Assembly: GCA_008632985.1 (NCBI GenBank)
Contig: QPGO01000316.1
Coordinates: 1-57,883 of the forward strand
DNA length: 57,883 nt
From: Psammoneis japonica
Lineage: Eukaryota
Reading direction: 5' to 3'
The position numbers and the translations under genes were made by a program. The notes beneath the pieces were generated by a model. That model saw only the letters and a list, made by a program, of their open reading frames with translations. It had not been told where the DNA came from and made no database searches. Shown piece after piece: positions 21,004-50,761 of the stretch (position 1 is its first letter; each line of letters begins with the position of its first letter).

Positions 21004-21826
21004 GATATTGTTTACAAGTAAGTTGAGCTAACACAAACAGTTGACACGCCGCAACCTTTTTGCATGCTTTTCTCGATTATTCTCGGCGACGCTCGGCAAC
21101 CGACGACGTCGTGCATGGTTGATCTTTGTCGGTTCGGTATCTTTTCAACATTCATATCTTTCACGTAGAAATCTACAAGTATGACGTCATCATGTCTCAG
21201 ATGGCCGCGCCGCCCGCCCCGCACGCACGCACCAGGCGAGTAAAAAGTAAACCAGGCCTGCGGGGAGCATTGACCACTTGTCTTTCTTTGTGGGTGTGGG
21301 AGTGTGCATGCCGTTGCATGCTACATTGCCTGTACGTACGTACGGTAGGGCCCTACCGCCGGGGCCGGTATTGTATGTGGCGGCTGAGTGGCGTGGCCAC
21401 CGCACCAGTGACGCGGATGACCGTTATATCTGATGTCTCATGCCATTTTTGGGGCTGTAGCGAGGTGCACGGACACTCTTTTTTTTCCAATTTATCGCCA
21501 TAATAGCGCATCGCACAAACTCACTTATTGTTCGATATGTTTTCCCCAATATGACTTTTTCGTGTAGAATTCACGATAAATTATCTTTGTATATAACTGA
21601 ATACATTTTTGAACATGCCACGCCGGCAATCCCAATTTTTTCAGAACTTTCGAGCTCTCCTGAAAAACCGTGCCACGTGCCCGTCGTAGGGAATTTATCG
21701 ATTTTTTAGGATGTCCCCACGACCTCTCATGTCCTCAATGATCATTCTACGAATCCGAAGAGTTCATCTGTGCTAAACAACCCATGCCCTTTCAAAATCC
21801 GAGGGACACACTTTCAAATTCAGACG

Positions 21827-21879
21827 GACTGCCCGACTGCCCGACCCCCCGACCCCCAGACTGCCCGACTGCCGGACCG
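21827..21879 (+). repeat. Short 8-bp tandem repeat (GACTGCCC/GACCCCC units)
   Basis: gactgcccgactgcccgaccccccgacccccagactgcccgactgccggaccg. Confidence 0.75.
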
Positions 21880-22274
21880 ACACGAAACTGCAATCACCAA
21901 CCACTGAGTGGTCAATGAAAAGACGGACAAGCCATGTGCAGGGGTCATGAGTCCCGAAAAACAGGGTTTGGGCCGATTCCTGGTGCAAAACTCACGCAGA
22001 AAATTCGCGCAAAATGTCTTGTTTGTCGTGCTTTTCCCGTGCTTTGCAAAAAACAGGCCACGACCTCAATGAATCGGTTGACACTTTTCGCTCTTGCTTT
22101 TTTATGACAAACACGACGATGTCCACCATTCGGCAAAATTCCAACATTGGAAAATGTTTGCCATGGTGGGACCGCAGGGAAGCATTTGATCAAATTTCTG
22201 AAAATGGAATTTTGAAGTGTTTGCGCACAGAATCGTGCCACTCATGTAAAAGTCATCATGCAAAGTGTCAATGG

Positions 22275-22321
22275 TCTTAGTGGATCGTGTCATTCCTGCT
22301 TGGATGCAGGAATCTCCATCA
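22275..22321 (+). repeat. 5' LTR (47 bp)
   Basis: tcttagtggatcgtgtcattcctgcttggatgcaggaatctccatca; 41/47 identical to 30129-30175. Confidence 0.9.
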
Positions 22322-22331
22322 GGTCATGAGC
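22322..22331 (+). promoter_or_regulatory. Primer-binding site (copia-type GGTTATG.. motif, here GGTCATGAGC)
   Basis: Directly follows the LTR-terminal CA. It differs from the copia GGTTATG consensus by a TA->CA change. Confidence 0.7.
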
Positions 22332-22630
22332 AATGCTCACACAGACGTGCAAGCAAGGCTCCTCTGCCACTGCCGACAACACATTTTCCTCTCATTTCAT
22401 TGTTGACGAAACCGGCAGAAAGCGTTTCCATCGCAAACTTTGCCGCTCTGTTGACGACAACGACGTCTGCGCATCGGATGCTGATTCACGCCACTGCTGT
22501 TTGTTTTTGCGGCTGCTTGCGTGGGTGTCAGCACACCTTCTGCGCACACCGCGATCTCCCTGGGCACATGCCACCGAGAACCGATGCATGCTGCCCCTGC
22601 GTGGTGGAATGACACTGATTTTTATTTTCA

Positions 22631-25600
22631 TTGTCGCTCACCATGGCCCCTGCTGACAGCACCCGTTCGAAAACGGCACCCTCTTGGCGGGACACTCTGT
22701 CGTCACTCCAGGCCGCTGTGTCACCCATGTCAGCCGACGACTCTCCTGTCTCTCCTCCTCCGGCGGAGACTGACCACACTTCTGCTGTTGACGCAATGAC
22801 AGAGGATGCTTCAGTGCCTCACGATGCGCCCACGGTGGAGGACGCAATCAAGGCAGAAGCCACCATTGCGGCGAATGTCACTGCTCCGGAAGCTGATGCG
22901 AGCCCTGAACACATGGAAACTCCTGCCTCTCTCTCGGACCAGCTGCTGCTGCCAGTGCTCCCAACCCTGCCTCCACGCTTGCCACCCACCCTGCCTCCTG
23001 AGTGGCCTCACACGCCTCCAGGCAATCCCCCGCAGCCTGAGGAACCTCCCGATCCCCCACACTTTCCTCCGACATCGTCTCAGGCTCTTCTCCAAAGGTG
23101 TGAGAGCCATCTCAACTCGGCTGTTGCCCGCATCCACAAACGCAAATGGGCACTGGATGTCTCTTCGGAAGAAGTTTCCAGGCTCAAGCGGGAGCTGCGC
23201 GACATCCGTTCAGTCACGAACAATCACGCCTCGGCCATTGCGGACCTCAAACATGCTCGTGATTTCGACCTCCTCCGCACCGAGGTTCAGACCCAAATGA
23301 AAGCAACTGCGGATGAAGCCATCGCTTTGGCTGGTGACGCGGCCAACAAAGCTTTGGCGACACGCGATGCCCAATTCCTGGCAGCTCTCGACAAGAAGAT
23401 TGTTCCGGTTTGCGAAGCCGCGGAAGCAACGACACTCAAACGCCTCCGCACCACATCGACGAATGCACAAAACAACATGGCATCTTTTGTGGTGGACCAA
23501 ACCAGCCGGCTGGAGTCGGCTGCTTCGGAAGCCATCCGCGCTGTGGGTGACCACGTCGGTGCCACCCGCAAAATTTCCAGGCTCGGCTTGAGCACGACAT
23601 TAAACTCCAAACAGATGACCTGGATGTCACCCTCACCAGATTGGACTCCACCAAGAATGCTGCAGAGCAGATTGTCCAAAATGGCTTCACTGTGGCCAGT
23701 GCAATGGCAGCCCTTTTGGAAGACTGTGAAAACGCCACTGCACCCTCGTCTGCAGACACCTTGTCTTCTCCAGCTGTTGGCCTCCAACATGCCACGAAGG
23801 ACCACCTGGCGGACACACTGCGAGATGACTTGGACGGCCTCCAGGCTCAACTGACCCTCCAACAGGACACCGCTCAGGTGCACGCCGGCAAGATCAAACA
23901 CGCCAATGATGCATCTGAAGCTGCTCGGCGTGCGGCAGCTGGCGTTCAGAAGGAACTGGGCAAATGTCGATCGGAGTTCTCAAATCTGACCGTGAACTTG
24001 TCACCTGCCACCCCGGATCCTGGCCCCAAGTTTACGGAACGCATTGCTTCATCATTGGACAACATCGCCAATCATCTCGTGAATTTGCCTGATCCAGCAA
24101 TCTCTCCAGCACCCCCGGCCGTTGGCACCCATCATGCTGCTGCGGGTAAATCAGCCTCCTCTTCGGAATGACACTGTGACTCCAAAACCTTCCGTGAGAC
24201 CCCAGGCCCCTTTCTCCATTCCATGGAACCAAACGACATCGCTCTGTTTCTCAAAGCTGTGCACACACAGTGCACCCAGGCCAATGTTCCCATCCGGGAT
24301 CCGGACACTCTTGCTCGCACTCAGTCCGACTTCTGTAACCCGATGTCAGTGAGCACGTCCCATCGTCAACGGCATGCAATCGAGACATGTTCCAAATTGA
24401 TGCAGGATGATGCACTTCCGGATCACCGACTGTGTGACGGTTGGAAAAAGATGTGCACCGCATCGATGGACGGTTTTGCGATCCTCAATCACCTCGCAGC
24501 TCTTGGATTTCCACCCCTGACAAGCAAAGTGGTTGATGCCCCATCCTGGAAAGGCGACCTTTGTGAGCTTGTGGCAGAATTCACCATTTGCTTCACTGCC
24601 GCGGAAGCCTTACATGCCAAGACGGATCCCACTGCACCCCTGGCCTGCTCAGAACGCCAGAAGTCTCTAAAATTGCTGGAGGCCATGCCGGCTGGCATGT
24701 GTGAACCGGTGCTCCTTCTTAAACACCATCTGAATGAGATTGGGGACTCCGCTCCCCTGCCCCATGATCTCCACCTGGTCTCTCTTGTCACACAGATTGA
24801 CCCCAGGCTCACCGCGAATGCCGACCCGATGGGATCCTTGAGTGCATTCCGCGGCCGACCATCTCGCGGCCGCCAGTCCATTTCGCCAGATCGGCAGCAC
24901 ACCCCGTTCCAGCCCCGGAAGGATCTCATTTGTGATGCATGCGTCGCATGCGGCCACAGTCATTGCAGCTGCACTAACCTGGCCCGCACTGCTTTGCTGT
25001 TGGATTTCATTGAGGTGAATTCGGAGAAAGTTAAGTCCATTGTTTCTAAATGGCAATCTCACAACCAACGCCGCAAGGACTCACCACGCCCGACTGCCCA
25101 TCCGTTTACGGCCGATGTCTCTCATGACATTGCCGACTGTGTGATGGATGAAACGGCCTCGGACCTCCTTTTTGAATCGGGCGCACCTCCAGATTTTCTG
25201 CAAGCCGGCCGCATGCTCCACCATTGTTCGGTGAACGGCTTGCCAATGGCTGCGGGGCAGATGATCGGGACGATTTGTCGTCTCTGCCTTCCGCTGACTC
25301 TCCGATCCCTCCTTCAATCTGTTGCTCATTCGCCTCCAGCATCCCATGCTTTGACCAGCTGCCGGACTGGAGTCATTCAGGCCGCCCTCCCGATCTCGCT
25401 AGCATGGATTCAGATTCTACGACATCGCACTCGATGCCAGACGATGACTCACTTTCCCTGTCGGACGAGTCGTGGGCTGCGGCGGTCGAGGATTTTGCCA
25501 AAGATCCTCAGGCTGCTCTACACTGCTTTGCCACCAAATTTGAGTCAATGGAGTCCGTCGCTCCTCCCACCATTGCGCTTTCCACGGCTCTGGCACTGGA

Positions 25601-28600
25601 ACATGAAACCGACGCGTTCCAGCCCCAGGTGGGACTCCGTGTGACATTGGGCCCGTGGAATTCTACGTGCGAGCTACGCAGTGCGAGAATTTAATCAATG
25701 CACACATTTGTCTTCAACATCAAACAAACGGCCAAGTTTGTGGTGCAATTGTGCCTCTCGCCACTCGACTTTTTTGCAAATGCGCCTGCCCTGCGCGATT
25801 CTTAAGGCATTGTAGAATCGCGCTGTGACAAAAAATGTCAAAAGTTGTTGGACGGATCGCTCAATGAGTGCACCGTAAAATGACACAAAATGTCAAAAAA
25901 GTCACGTAAGAAATCTACGTGCGCGACACACGACGTGATTCAAAAAACTGTCGATGTCACAGTTCAGTGGCACGAGGTCCCACCTAGACCTGGAATGCGT
26001 CAACCGCGTCACTGCCCACCTTTCACTGTGCCAGCATTGGGAACCTCACTCCGGACTCTCCAGTGGAAGTGTCAGGGCAGACGGACACTGGCGCCAATTA
26101 CAGCACCACATCTCAACGACACCTGCTTGCCAACTGCCGCCGTTTTACGAATCCCAAACCTGTGAGCACAGCTTCTGCATCCGACACCACCCTCACGGCA
26201 CTGGGTGCAGGTGTGCATGCCATCCGTGATGTGGATGATCGTGAGCATGACACTCCGATGTTCTGCTGCCCTGGGCTGGGTGAAACCCTGATTTCGCCTG
26301 ATCATCTGCGCAGAGCGTCCAAAGAACAATGCAGCCAATGCCATGCTTCACACTTTCAGGATTCTGGTCACGGCACACTCACGGTGACTCATCGGGAACG
26401 CTCCCTTGTCCGGTCTTTTCCGATGGTGCACGCTAACGGCTTGTGGTTTACACCACGGCTCCGCCCCGATGTGCCTCTGACTGACGGATGCACGGAACTG
26501 GAGGGTGCAATGCGCACGTTGCAGATGCATCCACCGACATTGAGAGACCTCGGATGTGAGTTCGATGTGCCCGATCCTCCCGGCAAGTGCGAACAGCTCG
26601 ACTCGGATGCCCCATCATCCCCTGCACCCATGGACCCCATCCCCGAGCATCCCAGTGTCAGCGAGGACCCGTCCAACGTTCCCGCTCCTCACTTGTCCTC
26701 CCTTCAACGCACTGCCACCAGCAAACTGTGGCACCACCGCCTGGGTCACCCTGGCATGCACCAACTGTCACACCTCCGCTGTCATGCTGCCGGCATCCCA
26801 TCGTCCGCTGATGCCACACCTCATCCCCATCGATCATGCTCCGCATGCAATGACGCCTGGCACAGGCGTGCTCCCATGGGCACCCCACAGGATGATGCGG
26901 ACTTGGAGCCAGCGGCACGTTTCCAGATGGACTGCGGGTGTGTGCGTGCTTCAGGGCCGGACATGAAACCATGCTCGAAGAAACAACGCGAAAAGGACGG
27001 CATTGAGTGCATTGTCCAATCACGGGACGGGTGCAATTTGCACCCACTGGTTGTGGATGCTAAAACTCGGCATGCGTGGGTGTTCCTCACCCCGAGTGAG
27101 GACCCACCGATTGAACTGGTGGACGCTTTCCCAGCTTGGCACAAGTGCACTGCTGGCACATGCACGGTCAGGGCAGATCAAGGTGGGGAACTGGCCCACT
27201 CTGAGGAATTCCGGAAGGTTTGTTTGAAACACGACTGTGTCGTGGAGCCTGCCGGTGTGGATGCCCCGTGGCAGAATGGCAGGGTCGAGATTTTGAATCG
27301 CACTTTCGGCATCATGGTGCGAGCTCTGCTGTGCTCATCGGGTCTCCCGGCCACCTGCTGGGCTGATGCCCTCACTCATGCGGTGTATCTCAAGAACCAG
27401 CTGTGGCACTCGGCCATCGATGTGACTCCACACCAGGCATGGACGGGTGAAGTTCCGGACTTGTCACATCTCCGGGCATTTGGATCTCGCATGTGCGCTC
27501 GGCGTCCTGGGAAACCGGCTGCCAAATTGGACAAACATGCCTTCCACGGTGTCTTTGTTGGACACTCGGCTACGGACGGTGACGTGCGACATGTGGACAC
27601 CACATCCGGATGCGAGAAGTCTACTCCACACGCCACGCATGATGAGGCACACTTCACTCAACCCATTGGACCTCCTGGTCCTCAACTCTTGTTTGATCTT
27701 GGCATCCAACAGGTTGCGCCTCCATCCCCGACTCCCCACAAGCCAGCGGCCCCAGCACCACACCCCCCCTTGTGCTCAACAAAGGCTTGTCTCCACCCCC
27801 CCCGATGAGCCCACTTCAGGGTTTGCCGCTTGGAGAAACTGCGCTGTTCTCCGATGACAACTGTCACACGATGGCTGCTGCTTTTGCATCCAAGGACCCC
27901 GTCACCCCCGATTCTGTTGCTGCTGTTGCGATGTCCTTCGATCCATGCGATGACTCATTTGATGTGATGTTGCCTGGCCGTGGGTCTCGCAAACCTAGAC
28001 TGGGTTTTGAGTTTAACTGTGATCCCCAATGCCATCGCCTGCAACTCCGTCACTGTCGCCCTGGATCACAGGCAGCGCGGATCCCACGATGGCGATCCGA
28101 ACTCCGACGCTCGTGCCTCATCGCAGTCAACACCCAGCCTGTCCACGATTTTACTGACCTCGACCGCGTTTTAGCCACCATCAATCCGGCTGCTCAGGAT
28201 GTTGTGCTCCGCTTTGCCCACGACTGCCGGTCACCGACATTGGATTCTGCGGGATTGCCACAACCATTTTTGGACCAGATCAACCATGTCTGCCATCAGC
28301 TCGACTCCATCCATGACCCTGCTCTTCCTTCATTGTACAAGCTCACACGCCGGAAACTCCAGACGCAGGAAGATTGGCCCGACTGGGAATCGGGTGAATT
28401 CAAACAGCTCGACATGTGCAACAGCCAAGGCATGTTTGGGGATCCCATTCCTGCCCCTCAGGGAGCTGCGGTCTTCCCATGGGTGTGGTCACACTTGGTT
28501 AAGAACGATGCGGCCTGCACCAAGAAGGCCCGTGGAGTCTGCGATGGCAGCCCTAGAGCTGGCTTTGTCCAAACACTGGCCCAGACATGTGCCGCATCTG

Positions 28601-30009
28601 TTGAGCAACCTGGCACTCACCTGTTCTTCACTTTGGCCGCCCTTAAAAACAAACGGGTGTGCGGCACAGATGTCAGCAATGCCTTCACTGAAGCTCCTCC
28701 TCCTGAGCAACGGTTCTACATGAGAGTGGATGAAGTTTTCCAAAACTGGTGGACCAAACACCTGGGTCGCCCTCCCATCCCCGAGGGCTGTGCACTGCCT
28801 GTGCTGAGCGCTCTCCAGGGTCACCCCGAATCTCCCCATTTGTGGAGCATGCATGTGGACAAGATCATCCGTGAACACCTCCATCTTGTCCCAACCACCC
28901 ACGAACCATGCATCTACAGCGGTGCAGTGAACGGCGAAGAGGCGCCATTTCTGCGTCAAGTCGATGATTTCGCCATTGCAACGGACTCGGATGCCACACA
29001 TCAACACATGTGCGACATTGTGGATGAACATCTCACCGGTGGTAAGATTGAACATCAGGGCTTGCTCACCCTGTTTCTTGGTTGTGATGTGGAACAGACA
29101 AAAGACTGCATCCGGCCACACAGCACCTCCTGCATCAAACGGATCTTGGCCAACTGTGCTTTCCTGACCGACGACAACCTCGGCCCGCCTCCCGCCATCC
29201 CGATGCCCGGCGATGCCTCCTGCTCCAAATCCCTTGATGAGGCTCCCACTCCAACTGACTCCAAGGCATCCAAGACCCTCCAACAACAACAGGGTTTCTC
29301 TTGCCGGAAGGCCGTCGGCGAATTGACATGGGCCATGGTCACCACCCGCGTGGATCTCAGCTGCTCGATCACCAAGCTGAGTCAGTTCGGCTCTAATCCT
29401 GGACAACTGCACTGTGAAGGTGTGAAGCATTCTCTCCAGCACCTCAAGCATCACCCCGATTTCGCACTCACATGCTGGCGTCAACAACCTGACACGACGC
29501 TCCCCTGTGCTCCTCCTCCACCTCCGATGACTGTGCCCCATGACCGAGTGCCACTGCCCCCTCAGGCTTCATCTCCTGCCGAGCTTGGCTGCCGACATCC
29601 AACACCGCCGCTCGATTGCGGCATTGCGTTTCTCCCAGCCGGAGCTGCAATCGCATGGAAGACCAGAGTGCAGCCGACTGTGTCAACCTCTTCATCGGAA
29701 GCTGAGTTTGTTGCTGCATCGGACGCCGGAAAAATGGCACTTTGTCTCCGGTCTATCATGGATGAACTGTCGGTCCCCCAGATGCAAGCTACATCAGCAC
29801 ACGAAGACAATGATGCATCCCACAAGATGGCCACCGCAAGCCAACCCACACGCCGCACCCGCCACATTGACATCCGCCATTTCGCTCTTCAAGACTGGGT
29901 CGAACGCGACTCAGTTCGACTGGATCGCATTGACACATCAGCAAATTGCAGTGACATGCTCACCAAGAATGTGGCACGCATCTTGTTTTTCTGCCATTTG
30001 GTGCGTTGA
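22631..30009 (+). pseudogene. Frameshifted, hypermutated gag-pol of the copia element
   Basis: Gag zinc-knuckle-like CDACVACGHSHCSC (~24930); protease DTGAN (~26085); integrase WHHRLGHPG..CSAC, RADQGGE, PWQNGRVE; RT LQGHPES, LRQVDDF; RNase H EAEFVAA, HEDN, RHIDIRHF, DMLTK. Several frameshifts, a MITE insertion and an apparent deletion of the first RNase H Asp motif. Confidence 0.9.
25611..26001. mobile_element. 391-bp MITE, copy 1 (inside the copia; partly hypermutated)
   Basis: TIRs GACGCGTTCCAGCCCCAGGTGGG / CCCACCTAGACCTGGAATGCGTC and 4-bp TSD AACC. Inverted homolog of 50762-51152. Confidence 0.95.
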
Positions 30010-30128
30010 GTGGACGCAACCGTCCCCTTTGTGTGCGGGATGGCAGCAACGACACACCACTGCACTGTTCACTGGAAGAACAGTGCACCCAGACTCACAG
30101 GGGTCACGATTCTCCTGGTGTGGGGGGG

Positions 30129-30175
30129 TCTCAGTGGATCGTGTCATTCCTACTTAGATACAGGGATCTCTATCA
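30129..30175 (+). repeat. 3' LTR (47 bp)
   Basis: tctcagtggatcgtgtcattcctacttagatacagggatctctatca, preceded by GGGGGGG (30122-30128) and followed by the TSD AATGG. Confidence 0.9.
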
Positions 30176-30483
30176 AATGGTTTCAGGGGAAAACGATTCC
30201 TTGAGGCGTCGGTGGAGCAGAGAAGCACGGTAGAAGCACGAGAAAAAAATCGGCCCAAACCCTAATTTTTATAATTTTTTCTACGTAAAATTTCTACGTG
30301 ATTTTTGTACCAGTGCACATGGCTTCTTTGCGTCTGTACGACGTGCGACACACCTTGAGCCTATGGTTCGTCGTCGTTCGTGAACAAAAGTTCGAGTGAG
30401 ACACCATGAGATTCTTCATCTGAGGGGGGGAGAATAGCACCTAGGAACTGACACGACGATGCAACACATTACCGGTAACCACG

Positions 30484-31600
30484 ATGACCAGAGATGATGT
30501 CCCCAGAGATGAGACGCTCAAGGCCGAAGAAGTATCAGCCAGCTCGGCGGTGTCTGATGCGCTGCGCAAAACGCGTTTTCTGTGTATGTTCACGCTTGGC
30601 GACGCGCAGCATACGGTAGAGACAAGAATGAAGAATGTGAATTTTGAGTCATGTTGGATATGCAAAGGCAGAGTACCACCTCCAATTTGTCTTTGGAACA
30701 AAGTTTGATGACGGGATGCTTTCGTGTGAAATCAAGCTCATCGATTGGAGACTCCAGTAGTTTCGCACGCTGATCTTACAGTTGGATGAAACGAACATTG
30801 ATTCTCTATTATCTTGATTTTGAGGGTAGAGTTTCATTTGAAGAATTTACAAGAGGGTCTCTTGCTCCCTTCCAATCTATTACAATGTTCTTTGTCGCTC
30901 AAATGACAAACATCCCGAGCAACCACTTGCGCGTCCTTGATAGAACTGTGATTGAGTGTAAGCCGATTCAGGTTGAACGATGGCCAATCGTCTTTGCTGC
31001 ATATATGCAAAATCGCAAAACAAGAAGCCATGGATTTTTGGATTTTAATTTGAGGACTGGGTCGAAGCTACTTGACGGCTCAATGTCTTTGTATCGTGAC
31101 GACGTGTCTGGGTGGCAGTTGGCTCGGCCATCAAGCGAGTAAATGTGTATCCATTCGACTTGTTCGAGGACGAGGATACAATTTGCCAGAAATCCAGAGA
31201 AAAAAGGAAGAAGCGCACTCCAATGTTATCTTTATTTCATCACTTGTCTGGCTTAGAAATATTAAGGTTGGAATCTCAACCCGAGCCCTCTCGAGTCCTT
31301 TTGGAAACTGTCGATCCCTTCCTTTACGGAGAATATTACGAGAAAATGGCACAAAACAAAGCACGGATCAAGCACATTACCAGTATATGCGCGTGTGTCT
31401 GGTCATTTCTCTGCGCCAATCCAACGAGTTTCACAGCAGCTTTCATCACGAATTGGCGAAGAGATACTCCAAATTGAGACAAAAGAAGACGCTCTCGACA
31501 TCTCACGTAACTGTATGCACATTGGATACGTCTGCATATATGATTTGCCCAATCATCGAAAGATGCGGCACAAGATTGAAGGAAAGGGGAGTTTCCAAGT
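30484..31600 (+). pseudogene. Fragmented unknown gene, part of the duplicated LRR unit
   Basis: Successive ORFs 30484-30708, 30786-31142 and 31112-31477 in shifting frames. A homologous copy at ~50240-52700 is interrupted by two transposons. Confidence 0.45.
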
Positions 31601-32190
31601 AAGTAGCTCTCTGCTTTGCTAAAGGTATCTGTCATATGTAAGAAGGCGCATAGATACAATCTGAATCGCGTCCAAAAAGAACTAAAAGGATAGTAACGTG
31701 CATCTGAGGTACTATCGCTGTGCATTTACACAACTTACGCACTAGTGATTCTGCGGCTATGTTGCTCTGAAATAGATCATTTTCGTGTCGTGAAACGTCG
31801 CTGCGGTGATACATGCTCGTCGGGAAACGCAACGTGGCTTTCGGGACGACGAGACAATGAGAGGAAGGTGCGATAGACCTGTAACAAGCATTTCTACTAT
31901 TGTGCCCTACTAGGGCTTCTGTTGGATGGCGATACCATACGACAACTGCTTCCACAGAGAATCCAGCTGCAGATTCTTGAATCGTCGCGATTGTCTTTTA
32001 CGAGGAAAGCTGGTGTTTCATTGAGTAAGACATTGGTTGAATAGAAAGGGCACAGCTACAATCTGAATGGCATCAATTGGATAGTCATTGGGTCTAGAGC
32101 AAGCGCGTTCATAGAAAGCTACATTGTGCTATTCCACAAGTAGTCGAATTGAGACCGCTGTGTGTTTAAAAGAAATCAACATAGAACAAA

Positions 32191-33360
32191 CTATTCCTCG
32201 CAAGCTCTCTTGGTTCCTCTTATTTCGACTCGTTTCTTTACAAAGTTCGGGTTGTGCTTCAAGAACCAAAATATAAAGTTCTCGTCGCTTCGGCGACCCG
32301 CCAAGACGTGCGGCCAGAGAGCATCAGGAACTCCACTTTCTCGACGCAGCAGGTGTCGTCCGGCCTTGTTCATTTCACAGTAGCAGTCCATTTCACCTTG
32401 AGACTCATTGGTGGGCATTTGAACACTTTCAACCGAATACGAAGCCTCGCCGATTTCTTTGGGCGAAACAGTGAGCGCAAAACAACGCCACAAGCTTAGA
32501 CTTTTGAGACACGGCAGCACTAGAACTTCTTTGCTAACTTGAGTCAATTGCTTACAGCCCTTCAAACTCAGCCCCTCTAGGTTTCGAAGTGATCCCAATG
32601 CAGGAGGCAGCTCTTCAAGACCACGACAACCGCACAAATCCAAGTTTGTCAGATTCAAGAAACTGCTTGTGCCAATGTTTTGAAAGAATTCTTGTAGTGT
32701 GCAATGCAACAAGCCATACAAAGAGAGAGTTTTCAGCTTCGACAGCTGACCAATCTCAACAGGAATTTCAGTGAGACATTTGCAATGACAAAGGTCGAGG
32801 TCTTCCAATTGATGCAACTGTCCAATTCCCGGGGGCAGCCGAGTGAGAGATCTGCAACAGGACAAAAACCTTTTCAAACTTCTTAAACGGAAAATGTCAC
32901 TTGGCAACCCCACGAGACTTCCACATTCTGACAAGTTCAACACCTCAAGACGGAAGAGCCGATGCAAACTACGAGGCAGTCGTTCAAGCTTGTCGCAACA
33001 AGACAATGACAATTCCTTCAAGCTTGTCAATCGTCCAATTTCATCAGGCAACTCGGTCAGTCTACTGCAACATGAAAGGTTCAACACTTCGAGTTTTGTC
33101 AATCGCCCAATTTCTGGAGGCAGTCGCTGGAGATTTACACAATACCTCAAGTTCAACTCCACCAGTCGGTGCAACATGCCGATCTCGGCTGGCAATTCAA
33201 CCAACCGAAGGCAATGCTGCGCACGAATTTCTCTGGCATTGGCGAATCCTTCGTGTTCTGGTTCATTTTCGAAACGAACCCACAATGAAAAACATTTCTC
33301 TGACAGATCTGTAGCTCGTACCATTGCACTCCGGATTCTAGCAGATGCATCGTCGTCCAT
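32191..33360 (-). CDS. Leucine-rich repeat protein (24-aa plant-NLR-like LRRs, diatom-type C-terminal motif), copy A
   Basis: About 10 repeats of LxxLxxLxLxxCxxLxxLPxxIG and C-terminus YCEMNKAGRHLLRR..LWPHVL..IFWFLKHNP. ATG MDDDASAR at 33360 matches the start of copy C. Confidence 0.85.
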   Translation of the reverse strand: MDDDASARIRSAMVRATDLSEKCFSLWVRFENEPEHEGFANAREIRAQHCLRLVELPAEIGMLHRLVELNLRYCVNLQRLPPEIGRLTKLEVLNLSCCSRLTELPDEIGRLTSLKELSLSCCDKLERLPRSLHRLFRLEVLNLSECGSLVGLPSDIFRLRSLKRFLSCCRSLTRLPPGIGQLHQLEDLDLCHCKCLTEIPVEIGQLSKLKTLSLYGLLHCTLQEFFQNIGTSSFLNLTNLDLCGCRGLEELPPALGSLRNLEGLSLKGCKQLTQVSKEVLVLPCLKSLSLWRCFALTVSPKEIGEASYSVESVQMPTNESQGEMDCYCEMNKAGRHLLRRESGVPDALWPHVLAGRRSDENFIFWFLKHNPNFVKKRVEIRGTKRACEE

Positions 33361-33689
33361 TGTGAAGCAATGTCGAACTGGATGCGCACCGTCTTTCACA
33401 AAAAAATAAAGATCTCACGAGTCAGACGATGAACGCAAACATTTGATGGTGACTGTTATCGACAGTGACGGCGTGTTATGACAGCGAACGTACAGTGCGC
33501 TGCCTTGTGAGTCGCTCAATGTCAAATGGTTTGTTTCATGTTTTCTGTGTTGTCGATTTTATTTTGTCGATTGAACAACAGAGCATTTTGCACGGAGGAA
33601 GGCCAGACGAATTGACATGCGAACTGGCGTACCGTATGGCGAGCGGGCTGACTGCATGTTAGTTGGAGCTTTGCGCATGCGGCTTCCCG

Positions 33690-36600
33690 ACTGGTTTGCG
33701 CCCAGTCTCACCGAACTCAACTCACTGCATGGATTACAAACACATGTCTTTTGTCATTTTTACTGCTCTTGCCGTGTTCACTGGGTGTGGAAGCTAAAAA
33801 GTGGGAACAAGCCTCATGAGAGCAACACAAAGAACGCAGGTTCACCGCACCATTGTTTGTTCTCAGCACGTCGCACACTTCAACACTGTCTGTCTGTTCT
33901 TCTTTGACTGCCTCTCACCCTGACATTCCAACACACTCCTTCACATGAGCCATCCATTGATTGGCCTCATGTGTGTCTGTCCTGGGTGGATGACAGTTGG
34001 AAATCATGCCACCCAACACCATGTTGGCTGCTGCTCCGCCGACATTCTCGTGTCCCAAGTCATCTGATGCAGCTGACGAATCATCGCCAGCCATCACCTT
34101 CTTTGAGCAAAGGGCAGTTCTTCTTAGCATGCCCCATCTTGCCACCTTTTCCAGCACATCAGCTGCTTCTTCTTGCCTTCTGCAAAACTTGCATCCCAGG
34201 GTTTCTTGTTGGCACAACACGTGTTCAACACCTGCAGCAGTGCCTCCCAACTGTTGTCAACCCCAAATGTGAGCTGCCTGTGCAGGTCTTCCAAAACAAA
34301 GCAATGTCCCTTGGTGCCTTCCATCAGCAGAGCCACCAATGACTTGTTCCTTTCCTTGTTCTGGGTGTCATCAGAGAGGCGAGAAAGGGCACATGAGTCA
34401 CAGGGCATCATTTGGCACTTTGGCCCAGTGAGTGCGCTCTCAGATTTGTTGCATCAGCCTGTCTCTGATTGAAACACATGATGCTTGATTGTTGGCAGTT
34501 GACCTTTTTTGTTTGTTCTCCACATTTTCATTCAGCAAGCACGTGACTGTTGCCCCATGACCAAATCATTTCATTTTTTGTCACATCTTGGCTCATGTGA
34601 CAACAGTCGCCGCGTGACTGTCCGGCGTCATTTTGCTCAAATCTGCAAAGTTGCATTTGATTGTTGCTGTGGACATTTCCACTTGGCAGTTTCTTGAAAA
34701 TGTCAAATGAAATTTGTGCACTCACCAAAGTTTTTCACATTGCACATTGACATGCTTGGTTGTCAGGGCAACATCCAGAGCAAGGCGACAGCGAATCCGG
34801 CACTCGTCCATTGTGTGAAGCAACCAACACTGCAGTGCGTTTGTCTTTTCTGCAACACTTCTATGTGATTTCTCTTGTTGTCAACTTTTTCTTGCTTTGT
34901 GAAGTTCAACAAATGCAATGTCAACACAGTGATTTCCCTCAAAAACCCACTTGGTCTCCTCTTTGTGTGAAATGACTTCCGCGGCAATTTTTTGTCCTTT
35001 CCATGAGAGTTCTGCACAAAATTCACCCTGTCAACTGTTGCATTCTTTGTTTTCACCACATCAATGGGGTGAGATTTGCATGCCCAATGGTGGCGTGTGG
35101 AGAAATCTGCTGAGCACCATGGTGACTCCCGTTTGACTCAGTTCAAGAATGGTGGCACAGAGGAACAAGCATCAGGCCCCCTCTTCCAGTGATTCTGAAG
35201 ACTCAGCTGGTGATGAAAAAGAGGGAGGTCATTTCTTCTGACCAACCACAGTGCAGCACAGGGAACACAGAATTGCCTCTGGTGGTGACTCTCTTTGTGA
35301 ATGATTCCCGGACTGTGTCATTCATGCACACAGTCACAAATGTTCAAAATGTTTTTGAAACTCAGGGGTGCAATTTTAAATCCATTCTGCTTTTTCAAGT
35401 CAAGAGAAAACACAAAAAGGGAAAGCCAGCTTGCAACAGTGTGCAAAGCAGTGCTGGCCACCACAGCAAGTGCAGGCAAACATGCACAACACAAAAGGCA
35501 ATGATCAAACATTGCAGCTGTGGCTCAGAGACAGACACCAGCCTGAGCAAGTGGACAGCCAATGATGAAAAGGTTGGCAGAGACATCATCAAGATGAGAG
35601 ATCATGTCCAAAGAAAAAGCGTTTGTGAGCATCACACTCATGTTTGGTGCAAAGCAATTGAGTTGGACAAAACAGGCATGCTGCATGGCAAAAACAAGAT
35701 CAGCTGCAAGTGTTGCTGGGTGTTGATGTTGAGCAAGATTTAAACTGATGCAAGCAGCACAGCATTGTGCCATTTCCAATGACACAAGGGCATGACAAGA
35801 TGAAGGAGCAACTCTCAGCTCTGACAGAAGTTGTGAATGAGCTTGAGAGCATTGCTGACAAGGGGCTCACAGAAAGGAGATTGTTGCAGAAAAGAGAAAG
35901 TGTGCACCAAGCAGCTTGAGCCCAGCAAAGGAAGGCACAGGGAGATGATGCAAGATGCCAAGGAAAAGCAAGGGACATGGCCGCCAAGAGCCAACAAGTT
36001 CTTTGAAGAGCCGGTCAAGGAGATCAAATGAGACATGATCACAAGTGAGTGATTTGGTTGATGGGGAGATTTGTGTTGAACAACAGCAGCCAGCCATGGA
36101 AAGCAGGGAGGTGAAGGACTTGAGAACTTGGGTGCTGAGGGAGACCACATGGCCAGCTGCACCAAGATCTACAAACTGGAGTTGATGGTGGTTTGACAGA
36201 TAAAAACCTGTGAGTGGCATTGTTTTCATTTTTCAATGTGAGATTCCATGGCAACACTCAATTGCAGAAGCTGCACCTTAGATGGCAACTGTCCAATTGA
36301 GCATTTTGTGTGGGCATCAACTTGCTGATTTGTGCCAAACTTGTTGGTTTGACCTCTTCTTGGTTGGAAAACTTGGGGACATTTGTTGGAAAGCAAAGGA
36401 CATTTGCTCACTTCAAATCACACCAATTTGTCATGAACAGGTGTGGTTTGTGATGAATTGGATCACAAATGAGTTCATGTGCTTGCACTCACAAACTTTT
36501 TCTCTGACCATTGTCTGCTTGTCAGCCAGCTGCCAGGAGGATTCATAAATTCAGGCCCCCAATGGATGTCAGCATCCAACCTGCACCCTTTTTCTTTCTT

Positions 36601-37736
36601 GGTGATTTCCTTGGGGACAACTCTGCAACATGACCCTTCCACCATCTCTGCAGTGCTTGCAAACCAGCTGTGGTGGTCTCAAAGCACTTCTCCATGCTGT
36701 CAAATGAGCAACAGTCATTTCCACACCTTGAGGACCACCTGGACATGCGGGCACACTCTCTCATTTGGCTGCATCAAACAGGATCAAATTGATCGTGTCC
36801 TCCAATGGTGTGCCATCACACTGCACTCCTTTGTGACCTTTGCAAACTCTGTCACTCCAAGCTTGTGATGGACAGCTTTTGCACACTGTCCCACAATCAC
36901 ATTGAATGCCTTCACCTTCTGCATCTCATGGATTGCACCCTGCTTCATGCAGTGGCCACGCTGTTTCCCCCAGATTGCCCTGTCATTCTCTGATGCAGTC
37001 ATGCCCAGTGGATGTTCTGGTTCCTCTGGCCTGTTCTCTTGCCTCAGAGATGCCAACACCTGCATCTCTGGCCTGAGCACTCTTCCCACACACTCACTTG
37101 TCTTTCTTGCATTTCCATGCAACTGCCCACCTGTCTGCCCAACTCAGCAATGGCATCGTGTGTCCACTCCTTTTGATCTTTTGTGCTTCCATGCTCAGCT
37201 GTTGTGTCCTCAACCAGCACTCCAGTCCAACACATCCTTGCTGCACCCCACCTTGGCAGACCCTCCAGCTGCCCTGCAGCAAGGCCCTCCAGAGATTGCT
37301 GGTTGTCACTTGGTCTCACTGACCTCAACTCACCACATGGATTGCACACACACACACACACACACANNNNNNNNNNNNNNNNNNNNNNNNNNNNNNNNNN
37401 NNNNNNNNNNNNNNNNNNNNNNNNNNNNNNNNNNNNNNNNNNNNNNNNNNNNNNNNNNNNNNNNNNNNNNNNNNNNNNNNNNNNNNNNNNNNNNNNNNNN
37501 NNNNNNNNNNNNNNNNNNNNNNNNNNNNNNNNNNNNNNNNNNCACACACACACACACACACACACATCTTTTGCCTTTTTTGCCACTGTGGCCATGTCAA
37601 CCAGGTGCAGAAGCTAAAAAATGGGAACAAGCCCTGCGATTTGTCAAGAGCAACAAACAGAAAATTCACCAAGTCAGTGTTTGTTGTCAGCACATCACAC
37701 ACTCCCAAAGCTGCCTCTTGCCCTGATGTTCCAACA
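33690..37736 (-). mobile_element. Old degenerate CoDi-like LTR element (LTRs ~33690-33933 and ~37297-37736)
   Basis: Diverged direct repeats (ctcaactcac..ggatt..gaagctaaaaa.tgggaacaagcc..ttccaaca), both starting TGTTGGAA on the minus strand. PPT-like GAAGGAGTG before the 3' LTR. Gag-like KAFNVIVGQCAKAV in ORF 36784-37122. Confidence 0.75.
37345..37566. repeat. (CA)n microsatellite spanning an assembly gap (N 37367-37542)
   Basis: CA runs on both sides of the N block. It lies inside the 5' LTR of the 33690-37736 element. Confidence 0.95.
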
Positions 37737-39805
37737 CAAACATGCTGCATGCTCATTGTGCACAAGATTCAAGTTCCAAACACTGGTCATTTGTCAGGTT
37801 GGTCCGCTCATTGAGTTTTGTAACACCCCTTCCTTTCTGCACATTTTCTGCATGGACTCAGTGCCACACAAGTCATTTCCTGTCACCCATGTGTGGCAGC
37901 GCCAGTCAACTGACACCCTTTCCTGATCCAGCATGTCCAAACCAGAGACAGCACAGATCACAGACAGAACAAAAAGGAAAGCAGGAAAGTCAGAGCTGAC
38001 CAGTGAAAAACACATTGCAGGCTGGATGACCAAAGAACAAATGGACAACAAAACAAATGCACAAGGTGCTGTTCAGCAGCAGGAGGTGCCAAATGCCAAA
38101 CAAATGGAGACATTGTGTCTCAATGGAAGTGTCCCATGAGGCAACAAGCATGGCACCAGGCACCCAGCATCAACCCAAGAGCCTTGGCAAGATCATCACT
38201 TGCACTGACATGGCCAGGAATGATGTGTCTTGTGGCAGAGTGCCGACCATCTTCCTTCCAACCCCGAATTGTGGCCAACATCTGTTGAGCATCAGTGTGG
38301 TGCTGCAAGTGCTCAGCAGGAACATGGTTGCTGATGATCTTGATGACAGGCAGCTCATCATCAACAAACAGTGGAGTGGGGTCAGGCTGGGAAAAAAGAG
38401 CTCTTGAAGAACTGAACATGAATGCAGGACATGCTTGGTGGTGGCGTGTCAGCGGCACAAAACTCAGCCTCAGCAGAGTCACCCACAGCAACTGGCTGCA
38501 TCTTGCAATGGCAGGAGATTGCAGTGCCTGCCAAAGTGCATCCATGCCCTGCAGAGGACTGGTGGTTCTGAAGGTCATTGCCGCAAACAGCATCCAAGAA
38601 AGCCATGAGCTGCGTGAGCAACTTTGCAGAAGGGAAAGCAGGCAAAGATGGGTCAACCTCAAGCTGCTCAAACAGACAGGCAGGTGGCAAAAGATCCTCC
38701 CAAGATTTCTTGCAGCTGACACCCCAACACTTGGTGCAACAAAGACACTTTGCAATGTCTGCCAAAGCAGCAAACTGAGTGGGAGCAGGTGACAAGGCAA
38801 ACTTGGAGAGTGTTGCAATTGTGTGCCCCCAGTGCCAAGGCAACAAATGACATGTGCACACAACAATGGCCCAAGAAGATGCTCTGGACAGCACATGATT
38901 GAGAAGTCTTCAACTTGCCACTGGAGGAGAGTGCACTTGCCCTCATGGGTGGATGCACAGACACACCTGTCATGGGTGGTGTTGGAGAACAAGAGCTTTG
39001 CACTCAGTCAAAATTCCAGACTCCTCAGGGTGACCTGGATGTGCACACAAGACAGGCAACTCTCCACATTCCAATCAAGGTCAACTCCAAAACAGGTTTT
39101 GTGCCATGTGGCAAAGGCTTCGTCAACCTTGCTGACATGAAATTGAGTGCACACATGGTGGTGAGGCCAAGAGCATCATCACAATCTGAGCACTCCAATG
39201 TGGGGATGGTTCCAAAAAGGGCCCAACAGTTTCCTCTGCCCTCCCCTGCTCTTGATCCCTCCCTGGGCTGACATGTGGCATGCAGTGGCACAAAAGTGTC
39301 ATCAGGTGCTGACACATTGATGTTGAAAGTTGTCAACAAAGTTGCAGGAGTGGTGGATGCAGAAGTGTCAACTGGAGAAAGAGGTTTTGCACTGGTTGGT
39401 TTTGGAGCTGGCAACCACTCTTTGGTGCCCCCCAGCTGTCATTGTGGTGTCTGAGTGAAGAGAGAGTGGGCAGCATTGCAGGTGCTCACAACTGGCTGCA
39501 ACAGCCTGGTTGAAAATCCAACAATGATTTTTCAGATTTCATGAGTGTTTGCCCATTCTGTCCAGCAGGCGCAAATTTCTTGGGCTGCCAACAAATGCAG
39601 GTGCACATTTTGCAGCCTCTCATTTCAAGACCTGACAAAAGTGGATGTGGAAGCCCTTGATGTGTGGGTTGTTCTTGAGAGCAGGGCAGCTGTCAAACAG
39701 ATGGTCCCCTGCGCAGACCAAATGCAGTCACTTTGTGGCCTTGTTTGGTGCTGCCTTGATCTTGAACACAGGTGCCATGCAGGTGTGGTGGAGAAGGTGG
39801 TCATT

Positions 39806-40720
39806 GACTTGTTCCAGACTTAGGTGCACTCACGCGCGAAAAAATGACCCTTTTTGCATGAAACGCGCGGTCCACACTTGCGGTACCATTTTCGATAGTA
39901 AAAACATAACAATTTACAAATGTGTTGTTATGGGTACATACAGAATTGTCTTGTGCGTGTACCCATGTATTCGAAACTGTTGATGGACTCAGTCATTAGT
40001 CGCTAAATTGTACCGTAAGTTGAGAGCTCGAATTTTCCGATGAGCGATTTATATATGCCTAAATGTAACAAGAAACATATAAAATATTATTCATATATAT
40101 AAATTAAGTCTTTAACATAGCATAATTAATATTTTGTTTTTATACGCGAATATGAGTTACACTCAACGGATCGAATAAAGCATTCGTTGATTAATAAGTT
40201 TAGGACGACGTGAGAAGAAGTGTAGCTCAGCCCACGCAATGGCGTCGACTTCGGACCATTTTTCACGGTTTAAAAGGCATAAACGATTGATACACTTGAA
40301 TCAGTCGAATATATTGAGGAAATATACATGGTAATAGAAAAGAAATGGTCCTTAGAGGCAAATTGTGAGTGAATAGAGGCTCAATTGTTGTTGCTGACAG
40401 ATTTAGCATTATTGTGCCGCGCTGCAGCCTTCAACAAGCATTTTCACTATTGTTGTTGATGACACAGACTATATCAAATACGGAGATCGTGGTCATGACA
40501 TTCAATTTTCCATAAGGCTGAAAAAAAGTGGGCCGTCATGGTCACTGAAAGCCATGGCCGGTTTGGCTGTTTGTTTGTTCGAGTTTATTCTGTTTATTTT
40601 ACTTACAAGCCATTGATATGATCAATTTTATTAAATATGTACGGTGTTCGATAAAGCATTAAAAAATTATTTTTTCTGCGAAAAGGGGCATGTGCGCGCC
40701 ACCTAAGTCTGGAACAAGTC
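39806..40720. mobile_element. 915-bp non-autonomous DNA transposon, AT-rich and essentially unmutated
   Basis: Perfect 21-bp TIR GACTTGTTCCAGACTTAGGTG and 4-bp TSD CATT (39802-39805 and 40721-40724). No coding capacity seen. Confidence 0.95.
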
Positions 40721-41275
40721 CATTGTCCATGGACGGGAAATTGAAGATGGGTGAGCTCATCACAAAAGCTGCTGAAGGTGTTGTCCATGGGTGGGTGTGA
40801 TGGCATCTTTTGGAAGTGCTTCATCTGGAGAAGAGTCCTGAGGTGGCTCATCATGCCCCCCCGCCCCAGCAAAGTCCAGAGCATTGACGCTGAGGTTGCA
40901 TCAGCACATGCCATCATTGCAGTGATTTCTGGGACAGTGGGAGTTCTGGGCCCATTGGGAAAAAGTGCCACAATCTGACATGTGCCAGAACTGTGATGAT
41001 GACTTGTCACTGGTCAAAACAAAAGTCAGTGGAGGAAGATCCAAGGAGATCCTGTCAGTCTGCCTGTTGCATGATGGACAGACTGTGTGTGGATGATGGC
41101 CAGACCTCTTGGATGGGCCAGCAGATCTCTCTGAGATCTGCCTCTTGTTCTCTTCTGCTGGCACTCATGTTGTCACAGTCCCAGTGCTTGGGGAGTCTTT
41201 CATGTTGTTGTCATCATCAACCTTTGGCATTCTGCCAGATCCTCCACACAGTCTGGGTGCCCTGATTTCTGTCCA

Positions 41276-41297
41276 GTGTGTGTGTGTGTGTGTGTGT
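41276..41297. repeat. (GT)n microsatellite within the putative 5' LTR remnant
   Basis: About 11 GT units. Confidence 0.9.
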
Positions 41298-41799
41298 CGA
41301 CACACCACTGGAGTGTGTTTTGCTGACACACATGACTCACTTGAGTCATGACCCAGTTGGCTGTCACCCTCATGCAGTGCAAGAGATGAGCTCCAAATGC
41401 CAGTTTGTGATGTTGGTCTGTTGTCTGTTCGTTGACTTTGCAATGTCCCTTCCTTTCTGCAAATTTTCTGCACAAAATTGGAGCCACAATTTCCCACCTC
41501 AGGAGAAATCACCTCACTGAATGAAAAATGATGAGTGGTGCCCAAGAATCCCATTTGACTGGAAAAGGCTCTTCTGGAACTTTGCTTCGAAACATGCAGC
41601 TTTGACAAATGTGCTTTGCAGCTTTGTGGTGTCTGATTGTCACTTGCCGTTGCCTTTTCAGATTTCCTGTCCACTGTCATTTTCATGCAAAATGGTGAGC
41701 AATTGCCACACCAACCACATCAGCAAGGCATGTGTGATTCTCATGTTGGAGCATCTGAGAGTGCGGCTGCCACAATGACACAAATGACAAGCTGTGCAC

Positions 41800-42425
41800 A
41801 ATCTGCAAGAAAAAAAGTGATTGACCATGTTGATGCTTTTGAACAACAAGTGCCATTCACAAATCATTTTATGTTGCAAGCATCACACCCGGTGGTGCCA
41901 CACTCACAATGGCAAGCAACCAAAGGCCAACTGCAACAACTCCACTCATCTTGCAGAAATGGTGCATTTCAGTGCTGTGATGCACCTCTGTGAGGAATGG
42001 CTTTTCTCAGAAAACAAAACTTCCATCTCACAGTCAGGCCACCCAGAAACAAAAAGAGTTTGCCACTTTTTGGCCAGCCAAGTGCACACACCTCATCAAA
42101 CACTGCATGCTTTCAATGAATGAAAGCCAGTTGTGTCATGGACATGGACCAACCACAAGAGCTTCTTGGCTCCAAAGAAAAAAAAACGAAGCAGCAACAA
42201 TGCAGAGAGACAAGGAGAAGTTGATTGAAACAATCAAAAAGATGAAAGAACAGTGAAGGAGAGTGTCAGCAAAAAAATTAGATTTTGCACAAGAGGAAAG
42301 AACACACAGAAAAAACAAAAGGCAAGACAAGACTGGGGTTCACATGGGAGAAAACTTGAGGCGATGGGCAGGTGAACACAAACAAGACTGGCATCACAGA
42401 GTGTTCAACAAATTCAAGGCATGGG
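41800..42425 (+). pseudogene. Hypermutated copy of the gene at 54860-55516
   Basis: For example gccagttgtgtcatggacatggaccaaccacaagagc (~42126) versus attagttgcgtcgtggacgtggaccgactacaagagc (55081); also gttgattgaaacaatc and ttagattttg..caagaggaa. Contains stops and indels. Confidence 0.85.
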
Positions 42426-47689: not shown

Positions 47690-48500
47690 AACGCGCAGAT
47701 CGTCTGTTCGACTGAGAAGTTTGAGACTTGGCAGCAACAGTGCCTCTTTGCTGATTTGCGTCAATTGTGCACAGTGCTCCGCATCCACACGACCTCCAGG
47801 TTTTTAAGTGATCGCACTGCAGGAGGTAGCTCTTTGGGACCACAACAAAAGCCCAGCAAGCTCTCAGGCGCAAGCAGAAACGTGCTTTGCAAGAAATCTC
47901 GTGTGCAGCGCGACACTCCACACAAGCAGAGAGTTTTCAGCTTGGACAGCACACCAATCTCAACATGAATTTTAGTGAGACCATTGCAGTGTGAAAGGCA
48001 AAGGACTTCCAACTGATGCAAAATCTGCCCCCCCCCACCAGCTCCAGACGGTGACCAAGCGACGAGGCAGGAGATGTGTGCAGCTCCACACTCTGCAAGA
48101 TCAGACACTTCAAACTTCTCAAAAGGAAGACAATCATTTGGCAGCCCCTTGAGACTTTTGCATGAGATGTCAAGCCCAACACTTTGAGACACAAGAGCTG
48201 GTGCAAACACTGTGAGGCAACCACTCAAGACGACTGCTGACATGGCCATCCAGCCCAAAAATGCCCTCAAGCTCGCCACTCGTCCAATCTCACCAGGCAA
48301 CAACTTGGTTGGCCCACAACAATCTGTGAGATTTTGCACTTTGAGTCTTGTCAATCATCTGTTTGCTGGAGGCAATTGCTGGAGATTTGCACAATTCTTC
48401 AAGCTCAACTCTGCCAGCTGGCACAATGTGCCAATCTTGGCTGGCAACTCTTCCCCTTCATGCTCTGGTTCAATTTTAGAGTGAAACCGTGGTGTCTCCT
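47690..48500 (-). pseudogene. Hypermutated LRR gene copy B
   Basis: Degenerate LRRs (LLPGEIGRVASL, LHQLEVLCLSHCNGLTKIHVEIGVLSKLKTLCL, KELPPAVRSLKNLE) homologous to copies A and C. Tyr-free and frameshifted. Confidence 0.85.
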
Positions 48501-50750: not shown

Positions 50751-50761
50751 TACAGTCAGTC

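Follow-up and report, generated by a model that had tools for sequence, protein, structure and literature searches.

The 57,883-nt stretch of the diatom Psammoneis japonica (Stramenopila) analysed here, called the window below, carries two full copies of a 391-bp miniature inverted-repeat transposable element (MITE) and no others. Copy 1 (25611-26001, plus strand) is nested in a Ty1/copia-type retroelement, and copy 2 (50762-51152, minus strand) lies in one member of a segmental duplication. Copy 1, like its copia host, has lost TpA dinucleotides by transitions either to TpG, which corresponds to A to G on the top strand, or to CpA, which corresponds to A to G on the bottom strand, and CpG and other contexts are nearly spared in the MITE pair. 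TpA is also erased almost wholly from four kilobase-scale stretches of the window, made up of the retroelement, unrecognisable repeats, and a duplicated leucine-rich repeat (LRR) pseudogene with its flank. We regard it as likely that a process converting TpA to TpG or CpA has acted on mobile DNA in this diatom and that copy 1 is an older, converted insertion in the copia element.

The two copies are identical at 357 of 393 aligned columns (90.8%) and are separated by 32 substitutions and 4 indel columns. Copy 2 contains 26 TpA (observed/expected 0.84), of which 11 are TG and 7 are CA in copy 1 while 8 are kept, and copy 1 has 9 TpA in total (observed/expected 0.35). The 28 CpG of copy 2 are kept in 26 cases, the other two being TG and CT. 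A preliminary description of this stretch had given the same figures for TpA and had reported CpG as almost untouched, with one change of CG to TG; these counts were exactly reproduced, and the sequence examples quoted there are present in both copies. Its roughly a dozen other differences proved to be somewhat more, namely 14 substitutions and 4 indels outside TpA. The 52 bases within TpA hold 18 changes compared with 14 in the 339 other bases (odds ratio 12.3, Fisher p=1.2e-9). In 23 of the 32 substitutions an A or T of copy 2 faces a G or C in copy 1, transitions in the opposite direction numbering only 2, and TpA accounts for 18 of these 23 where 23.5% would be expected (binomial p=4.7e-8). 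TG and CA outcomes follow one another along the element without clustering (10 runs, 9.6 expected).

Both sequences are copies of a non-autonomous DNA transposon with terminal inverted repeats (TIRs) belonging to a very large family. Each end of both copies shows GACGCGTTCCAG, bar one T at the 3' end of copy 1; the termini read GACGCGTTCCAG and CTGGAA(C/T)GCGTC, and the inverted repeats run on imperfectly to about 24 nt. At 391 bp the element is too short to encode a transposase and is non-coding and multicopy. Target-site duplications read from the sequence are AACC for copy 1 (25607-25610 and 26002-26005) and AGTC for copy 2 (50758-50761 and 51153-51156). An 8-bp reading (GTCAGTCG) also fits copy 2 taken alone; the duplication is probably 4 bp, because a related 915-bp element in the window carries a perfect CATT/CATT. 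A paralogous empty site of copy 2 is found near 30976-30985, in the other member of the segmental duplication (30514-33497 and 50290-54564), so that the element is accompanied by both a target-site duplication and an empty site. Contigs were also available from three sequencing runs, X1, X2 and X3. All three were made from a single sample, which may be the one that was assembled, and therefore do not provide evidence independent of the assembly. In X1 and X2, contigs join 50754 directly to 51150, omitting 395 bases, with 8 letters at the joint that match either side. Either another allele or a very close paralog therefore lacks the insertion, and copy 2 is probably young. Compared with the window over 50300-51250, this MITE-free form shows TA in place of TG or CA at several positions and CG in place of CA at one. 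Should it represent the other haplotype, as it may, the conversion process would have been active recently. As to family size, 2438 contig pieces of X1 were placed on the MITE, and the summed word depth, which is not equal to copy number, is 1e5-4e5 over the MITE, about 50-100 over the left flank of copy 2 and up to about 900 over its repetitive right flank.

The pair alone gives no direction of change, so it is not the direct polarised proof for which it had been taken, and the symmetry of the TIRs, the further argument offered for an ancestral TA, concerns one site only. The conclusion itself, that TA is ancestral and was changed to TG or CA, is upheld by four other lines of evidence: conserved tyrosines of the host copia element, symmetric sites within the MITE, the contigs of X3, and pairs of paralogs inside and outside the TA-free stretches, which are described further below.

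Tyrosine is encoded by TAY, which contains TpA, whereas cysteine is TGY and histidine is CAY. Columns with conserved tyrosine were taken from 60 diatom homologues of the open reading frame (ORF) for reverse transcriptase and RNase H, and from 35 long homologues of the integrase ORF, which gave 11 and 8 columns respectively. At these 19 columns the window copia has tyrosine in 2, cysteine in 7, histidine in 8 and another residue in 2, while it keeps 292 of 374 other conserved columns (Fisher p=2.4e-9). The reverse transcriptase ORF contains 0.39% tyrosine compared with at least 2.5% in all 120 homologues.

Among symmetric sites, CTAGG is found in three of the four MITE TIRs, as had been noted before, and the 5' TIR of copy 1 has CCAGG. 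A solitary MITE-type TIR remnant at 43124-43147 (minus strand, 20 of 24 positions identical, GATG for GACG) has CTGGG at this site, and both TIRs of the 915-bp element have CTTAGG at the corresponding site. As the site is CA in copy 1 and TG in the remnant, an ancestor with TG or CA would need two changes. Of the 8 half-sites of the palindrome GTAGAATTCTAC, 7 have GTAGAA and the remaining one, in copy 1, has GTGGAA, as read by eye from the alignment rows. X3 is a low-depth run, a sibling of X1, that assembles only the most abundant exact words, and its contigs differ from copy 2 at 10 places only. They cover 16 of the converted sites, at most 2 of which can differ, so TA is kept at no fewer than 14 of 16. 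Three states occur at position 50792 (alignment columns 372-373), namely TA in the X3 contigs, TG in copy 2 and CA in copy 1, and 51080 is a second site where copy 2 has TG and X3 has TA.

The reverse polarity, with TG and CA ancestral and TA gained by copy 2 through C-to-T change at CpA and TpG as in repeat-induced point mutation (RIP), would be compatible with the pair, directionless as it is, and with a majority of TG in X1 at 4 or more sites among the variant rows listed. It is nevertheless already largely refuted, and we consider it very improbable. Conserved tyrosine columns have turned to cysteine or histidine, TA is found at the symmetric sites and in the X3 contigs, and the TIR site, being CA in one copy and TG in another, is two changes away from either such ancestor. 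The repeats of the window are TA-free, rich in TG and CA, and GC-richer, the opposite of what RIP predicts. Fungal RIP, which yields AT-rich, TpA-enriched repeats, was likewise rejected as a description of the window as a whole, since both composition and polarity are opposite.

The four TA-free domains were delimited by TA-free runs, and dinucleotide ratios were calculated per 1-kb bin. D1 (21774-30151) holds the copia element and copy 1, with TA observed/expected of 0.02-0.27 per kb, CpG of 0.67-1.03 and GC of 53-59%; its weakest depletion is in the bin that holds copy 1. D2 (33795-39805) is TA-free and CpG-poor, and includes an assembly gap of 176 N at 37367-37542. D3 (40721-43248), also TA-free and CpG-poor, is a continuation of D2 and includes a converted paralog (41946-42378) of 54897-55344. 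D4 (47973-50751) includes the left flank of copy 2, which is converted, as well as a degenerate LRR paralog; its CpG observed/expected is 0.23-0.36, rising at its end. All four have almost no TpA, with TG+CA observed/expected of 1.3-2.0, and TG is about equal to CA in each of them (706 and 756 in D1). CpG observed/expected in D2-D4 is 0.07-0.36. None of 15 ORFs from D2 and D3 had a match in Pfam.

The contrast between a copy in a domain and a copy outside, by which the pair had been described, can mislead. Only 11 bp separate copy 2 from a TA-free run of 1.8 kb, and the flank on its other side appears to be converted as well. Where copies of the adjoining repeat vary elsewhere in the genome, the difference is likewise mostly TA versus TG or CA, at 11 of 13 listed places to the right of copy 2 and at 6 of 15 to the left. 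Moreover, the related 915-bp element (39806-40720; TIR GACTTGTTCCAGACTTAGGTG, target-site duplication CATT) has normal TA and CpG content inside a TA-free domain. It separates D2 from D3, whose TA-free runs end precisely at its ends; its TIRs are of the MITE type, and it appears to be a young insertion. With TA-normal elements in or beside TA-free stretches, conversion tracks exposure history or targeting and not position alone, and copy 2 and the 915-bp element are read as younger than the stretches that surround them.

The host element (22619-30009, plus strand) contains four stop-free ORFs of 411-770 amino acids, with gag-pre-integrase, SH3_retrovirus and RVT_2 domains, and copy 1 is located between them. 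Its relatives are diatom copia elements. The ORFs have almost no tyrosine and an excess of cysteine and histidine; with TAA and TAG erased, TGA alone can stop translation, and the frames therefore stay long and open. Pfam scores are weak (RVT_2 E=1e-4). A search for its long terminal repeats found only a direct repeat of 49 nt (22273-22321 and 30127-30175), in which 5 of 6 differences, read by eye, are TA versus TG or CA. Inverted matches flank the element at 21957-22044 (AAAAACAGGGTTTGGGCCGATT) and 30222-30269 (AAAATTAGGGTTTGGGCCGATT); of the two arms, only the left one is part of the TA-free domain. The copia may be located inside another inverted-repeat element. A tandem array of 6.4 copies of GACTGCCC is found at 21827-21877, at the left edge of D1.

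Conversion is not confined to retroelements. The segment 30514-30976 has 16 TA, none of which is kept in its paralog in D4 (50290-50748), and of the 7 TA of 54897-55344 only 1 is kept in 41946-42378. In a control pair with both members outside the domains, 50 of 83 TA are kept and the changes are symmetric. LRR-gene segments occur as three paralogs, at 30514-33497, 50290-54564 and 47711-48450; the first two hold intact, unconverted LRR ORFs about 80-83% alike (32191-33414 and 53204-54406, minus strand), while the third is degenerate and lies in TA-free D4. Where the two outside copies agree on TA, at four places, the copy in the domain has lost it every time, and it has also lost 15 of 16 CG.

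These data bear on the proposal that RNA of the copia, with the MITE nested in it, was subject to A-to-I editing (or its cDNA to deamination) and was then reinserted. The preliminary description excluded RNA editing on the ground that a DNA transposon has no RNA stage; that argument fails, as copy 1 is nested in a retrotransposon and would be transcribed with it. A 5' U preference is also reported for ADAR (bioRxiv 10.64898/2026.01.13.699255). The exclusion itself holds on other grounds. A single RNA or cDNA strand would yield TG only or CA only, whereas both are found at 11 and 7 sites in the MITE, in the nearly equal totals of D1, and as 7 changes of tyrosine to cysteine beside 8 to histidine in the copia, and duplicated DNA that is no retroelement was converted too. 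Lacking both strand asymmetry and restriction to retroelements, A-to-I editing at an RNA stage was rejected, and we give it very little credence.

An error of assembly or base calling, in which modified bases of silenced DNA are misread, for example a modified A as G, is equally hard to credit. Systematic miscalls at modified bases do occur with some long-read base callers, and no platform is recorded either for the assembly or for runs X1-X3. On the other side, k-mer contigs of two runs carry the TA-free flank of copy 2, including a 152-nt contig that equals 50569-50720 with 0 differences. Other contigs restore TA at only 6 listed places in 50300-50750, although the unconverted paralog has 16 TA. 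A signature of the same kind also arose de novo in Illumina reads of the chlorarachniophyte Bigelowiella natans (bioRxiv 10.64898/2026.01.13.699255).

The bases next to TpA influence its conversion. Among TA surviving in the domains, those with T beside the A on its 3' side are depleted (ratio 0.22; chi-square p=2e-14). ATAT survives 0 times (118 in the background), ATAC once (227) and GTAC once (116), while TTAA and CTAA are enriched. In the MITE, the A was converted in 9 of 14 cases when followed by T, 3 of 12 by C, 3 of 11 by G and 3 of 13 by A. The process favours 5'-TAY-3', which is RTA on the other strand, and the hottest context is TAT with a disfavoured bottom strand. Prediction of the converted strand from this rule agreed at 7 of 11 informative MITE sites in a hand tally, which is not used as support.

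TA is its own complement, and A-to-G change in TAY is therefore not separable from T-to-C change in RTA. This leaves room for a different chemistry, either a lesion on the thymine of TpA, such as oxidation to a base like 5-hydroxymethyluracil that mispairs with G, or error-prone repair at TpA. Thymine modification with a preference for TpA is known in dinoflagellate DNA. Adenine deamination, however, gives A to G directly and efficiently, and the sole experimental study takes adenine deamination as its hypothesis (bioRxiv 10.64898/2026.01.13.699255). An origin of either of these other kinds is held to be unlikely, though worth keeping in view.

Several observations weigh against a TpA-erasing process of the kind proposed or blur its outline. 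Its specificity is strong but not absolute, as 5 of the 23 changes from A/T to G/C in the pair lie outside TpA. The oldest converted sequence, the LRR paralog 47711-48450, has many A-to-G and T-to-C changes in other contexts (AT to GC, AC or GT; GT to GC; TT to CT; AA to AG), which may reflect relaxation of specificity with long exposure or a second bias from AT to GC. The 3' preference for T or C is unlike the 3' G preference of ADAR and unlike the 3' neighbours of A34 in tRNA anticodons. The only deaminase gene of the window is that of an ordinary dCMP deaminase. Finally, per-site family states in X1 were taken from 40 of 135 variant rows, and among the variant rows listed the depth-weighted majority is TG at at least 4 of the 18 sites: 50814 (81%), 51012 (73%), 51018 (60%) and 51053 (67%). 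The state of the family at the remaining 14 sites is seen just indirectly, through X3. A family consensus of TG or CA had been named in advance as the finding that would overturn the polarity; the X1 majority goes part of the way there, and X3 keeps TA at all four of these sites. We do not think that the polarity is reversed by them.

Because of the TG majority in X1, part of the 18 changes may have been inherited and not made in place. An extended form of this idea, in which the changes mostly reflect two source lineages of the MITE, one of them converted elsewhere, would leave the process real. It draws further on the polymorphism of this very large family, whose variant places comprise 34 A>G, 33 T>C, 21 C>T and 13 G>A, and on the TG that copy 2 itself has at 50792 and 51080. 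Three of the four X1-majority sites are, however, in the hottest context, so a majority could come from independent hits in many copies. The 5' TIR of copy 1 is itself converted (CCAGG), which would hamper later transposition. The host is also more converted than the MITE (tyrosine kept in 2 of 19 columns, TA in 8 of 26), as is expected if the MITE met only the later part of the exposure of its host. Largely inherited differences are an improbable, though not negligible, account of the pair, and conversion of copy 1 in place remains the preferred reading.

The process of TpA conversion would act after integration, on chromosomal double-stranded DNA and on both strands. By analogy with the known system discussed below, its chemical step is most likely one in which a DNA-directed adenine deaminase, aimed at silenced or repeated DNA, turns adenine into hypoxanthine, which is then read as G. 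The outcome would be an inactivation of mobile DNA resembling RIP with the opposite effect on composition, TA being destroyed and GC raised. As a candidate for the enzyme, the deaminase gene of the window (55610-56581, minus strand) was rejected. Its product resembles dCMP deaminase (ComEB; dCMP_cyt_deam_1 E=3e-32) with a weak match to TadA, and judged by sequence the gene has the appearance of a housekeeping one and not of one for a polynucleotide deaminase. This ORF includes a partial duplicate of its own C-terminal part, and DNA repeats are located nearby (55934-56094 and 56700-56858). Another ORF of the window, for a formate-tetrahydrofolate ligase, has its best matches in diatoms only (up to 85% identity).

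Three general explanations for the loss of TpA were rejected. GC-biased gene conversion was ruled out by the binding of the changes to a context, and native avoidance of TA by the elements was ruled out by the existence of TA-rich versions of the same sequences. Decay of 5-methylcytosine (5mC) by deamination does not agree with the MITE pair, in which 1 of 28 CpG became TpG. The paucity of CpG in D2-D4 would represent a separate overlay of such decay, and in the comparison of paralogs inside and outside the domains only 1 of 22 CG is kept.

The signature matches that of a process in B. natans, for which Mettrop et al. (bioRxiv 10.64898/2026.01.13.699255) report that integrated viral DNA underwent de novo TpA-to-TpG/CpA hypermutation in mutation-accumulation lines. 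They propose an ADAT2-type deaminase as candidate, and reverse transcriptase and DDE domains are enriched there among TpA-depleted genes. Common to that system and to the window are nearly exclusive A-to-G and T-to-C changes on TpA giving TpG or CpA according to strand, kilobase-scale clusters in foreign or mobile DNA, and long-term depletion of TpA with enrichment of CpA and TpG. The cut-offs available from B. natans are passed by 15 of 57 1-kb bins of the window, covering the copia, the repeats and the pseudogene, when the CpA+TpG index is taken, by our own assumption, as the mean of the two ratios. The window thus shows predominance of A to G and T to C, restriction to TpA (not absolute), effects on both strands, clustering, and the direction from TA to TG or CA. 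By this analogy the diatom is a new lineage for the process and its mobile DNA a new class of target. The two cases differ in lineage, a diatom (Stramenopila) as compared with a chlorarachniophyte (Rhizaria), and in kind of evidence, the window being a fossil record and the B. natans changes de novo mutations. Targets in the window are the copia, the MITE, unrecognisable repeats and a duplicated pseudogene, while those given for B. natans are viral inserts. Erasure is near saturation in the window (TA observed/expected 0.0-0.1) as against 0.45 for an insert of a nucleocytoplasmic large DNA virus (NCLDV, giant virus) in the same source. The 3' preference for T or C is a feature seen in the window. 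Diatoms are unmentioned in the part of the preprint that was accessible, and a search of the literature for a diatom report of the TpA-to-TpG/CpA signature found none.

Similarities with other mutational systems are more limited. As in RIP, the changes are dinucleotide-specific transitions at the DNA level, affect both strands of repeated or mobile DNA and destroy its coding capacity, and hypermutated and clean copies of one family are found side by side. RIP of ascomycete fungi consists of C-to-T change at CpA, which creates TpA and AT-rich isochores; the window differs in that A-to-G change at TpA destroys TpA and raises GC. CpG methylation is known from transposable elements of diatoms. Decay of 5mC also has TpG and CpA as products and is superimposed on D2-D4, but it leaves the loss of TpA unexplained, and D1 keeps most of its CpG though its TpA is gone. 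ADAR A-to-I hyperediting and APOBEC C-to-U editing have been found fixed by retrotransposition in retroelements (PMC4866542). Such footprints are likewise clustered transitions in mobile elements read as host defence, ADAR with A-to-G change and a 5' U preference; they arise on one RNA or cDNA strand and are strand-asymmetric, whereas those of the window affect both strands and extend to DNA transposons and pseudogenes.

Some further sequences related to the MITE were identified. A third copy in D3 was looked for, and only the 24-nt TIR remnant aligns there (local score 37, below the shuffle maximum of 43). Of the two members of the segmental duplication, only B has the stretch 51233-52077 (844 bp), in which the MITE palindromic motif GTAGAATTCTACGTG is found near either end (51299-51316 and 51982-51999), along with a 19-bp tandem repeat at 51322-51361 and an internally duplicated segment (51362-51581 and 51605-51822). 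Copies of this stretch elsewhere in the genome differ from it mostly by TA to TG or CA. A palindromic motif GTAGA(A/T)TTCTACGTG is also present at 21162-21179, just left of D1 and outside any recognised element. Viral contigs scanned with a 19-nt core of the MITE gave 4 loci, all of them chance matches of 19-21 nt, and 0 loci with the TIR pattern; metagenome contigs scanned with an 18-nt TIR-proximal word gave 1 locus, a chance match.

For a GC-raising hypermutation of mobile DNA that is specific to TpA, the 2026 preprint on a rhizarian alga is the only earlier description known (bioRxiv 10.64898/2026.01.13.699255). A near-saturated signature in a diatom suggests that the process occurs widely, or at the least recurrently, among major marine phototrophs, and provides a second lineage for a comparative-genomic hunt for a common enzyme. 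In annotation, false genes and missed transposable elements are to be expected in hypermutated regions, with their open ORFs and poor profile scores. For base-editing work, a deaminase that acts on DNA adenine in a defined context would be of interest, and the high-copy MITE family is a natural per-site read-out of the process. More tentatively, diatoms and chlorarachniophytes might possess in common an old defence, perhaps of the age of the SAR group, with a TAY-specific DNA adenine deaminase that has acted recently and to saturation in this diatom. The enzyme would target silenced, repeated or newly integrated DNA and would rewrite both strands until the susceptible TpA were gone. Were this the case, tyrosine codons, TAA and TAG stops, TATA-like promoters and TIR recognition sites would all be abolished in a mirror image of fungal RIP, and the large, still mobile MITE family would serve the diatom genome as a built-in clock and reporter of the process.

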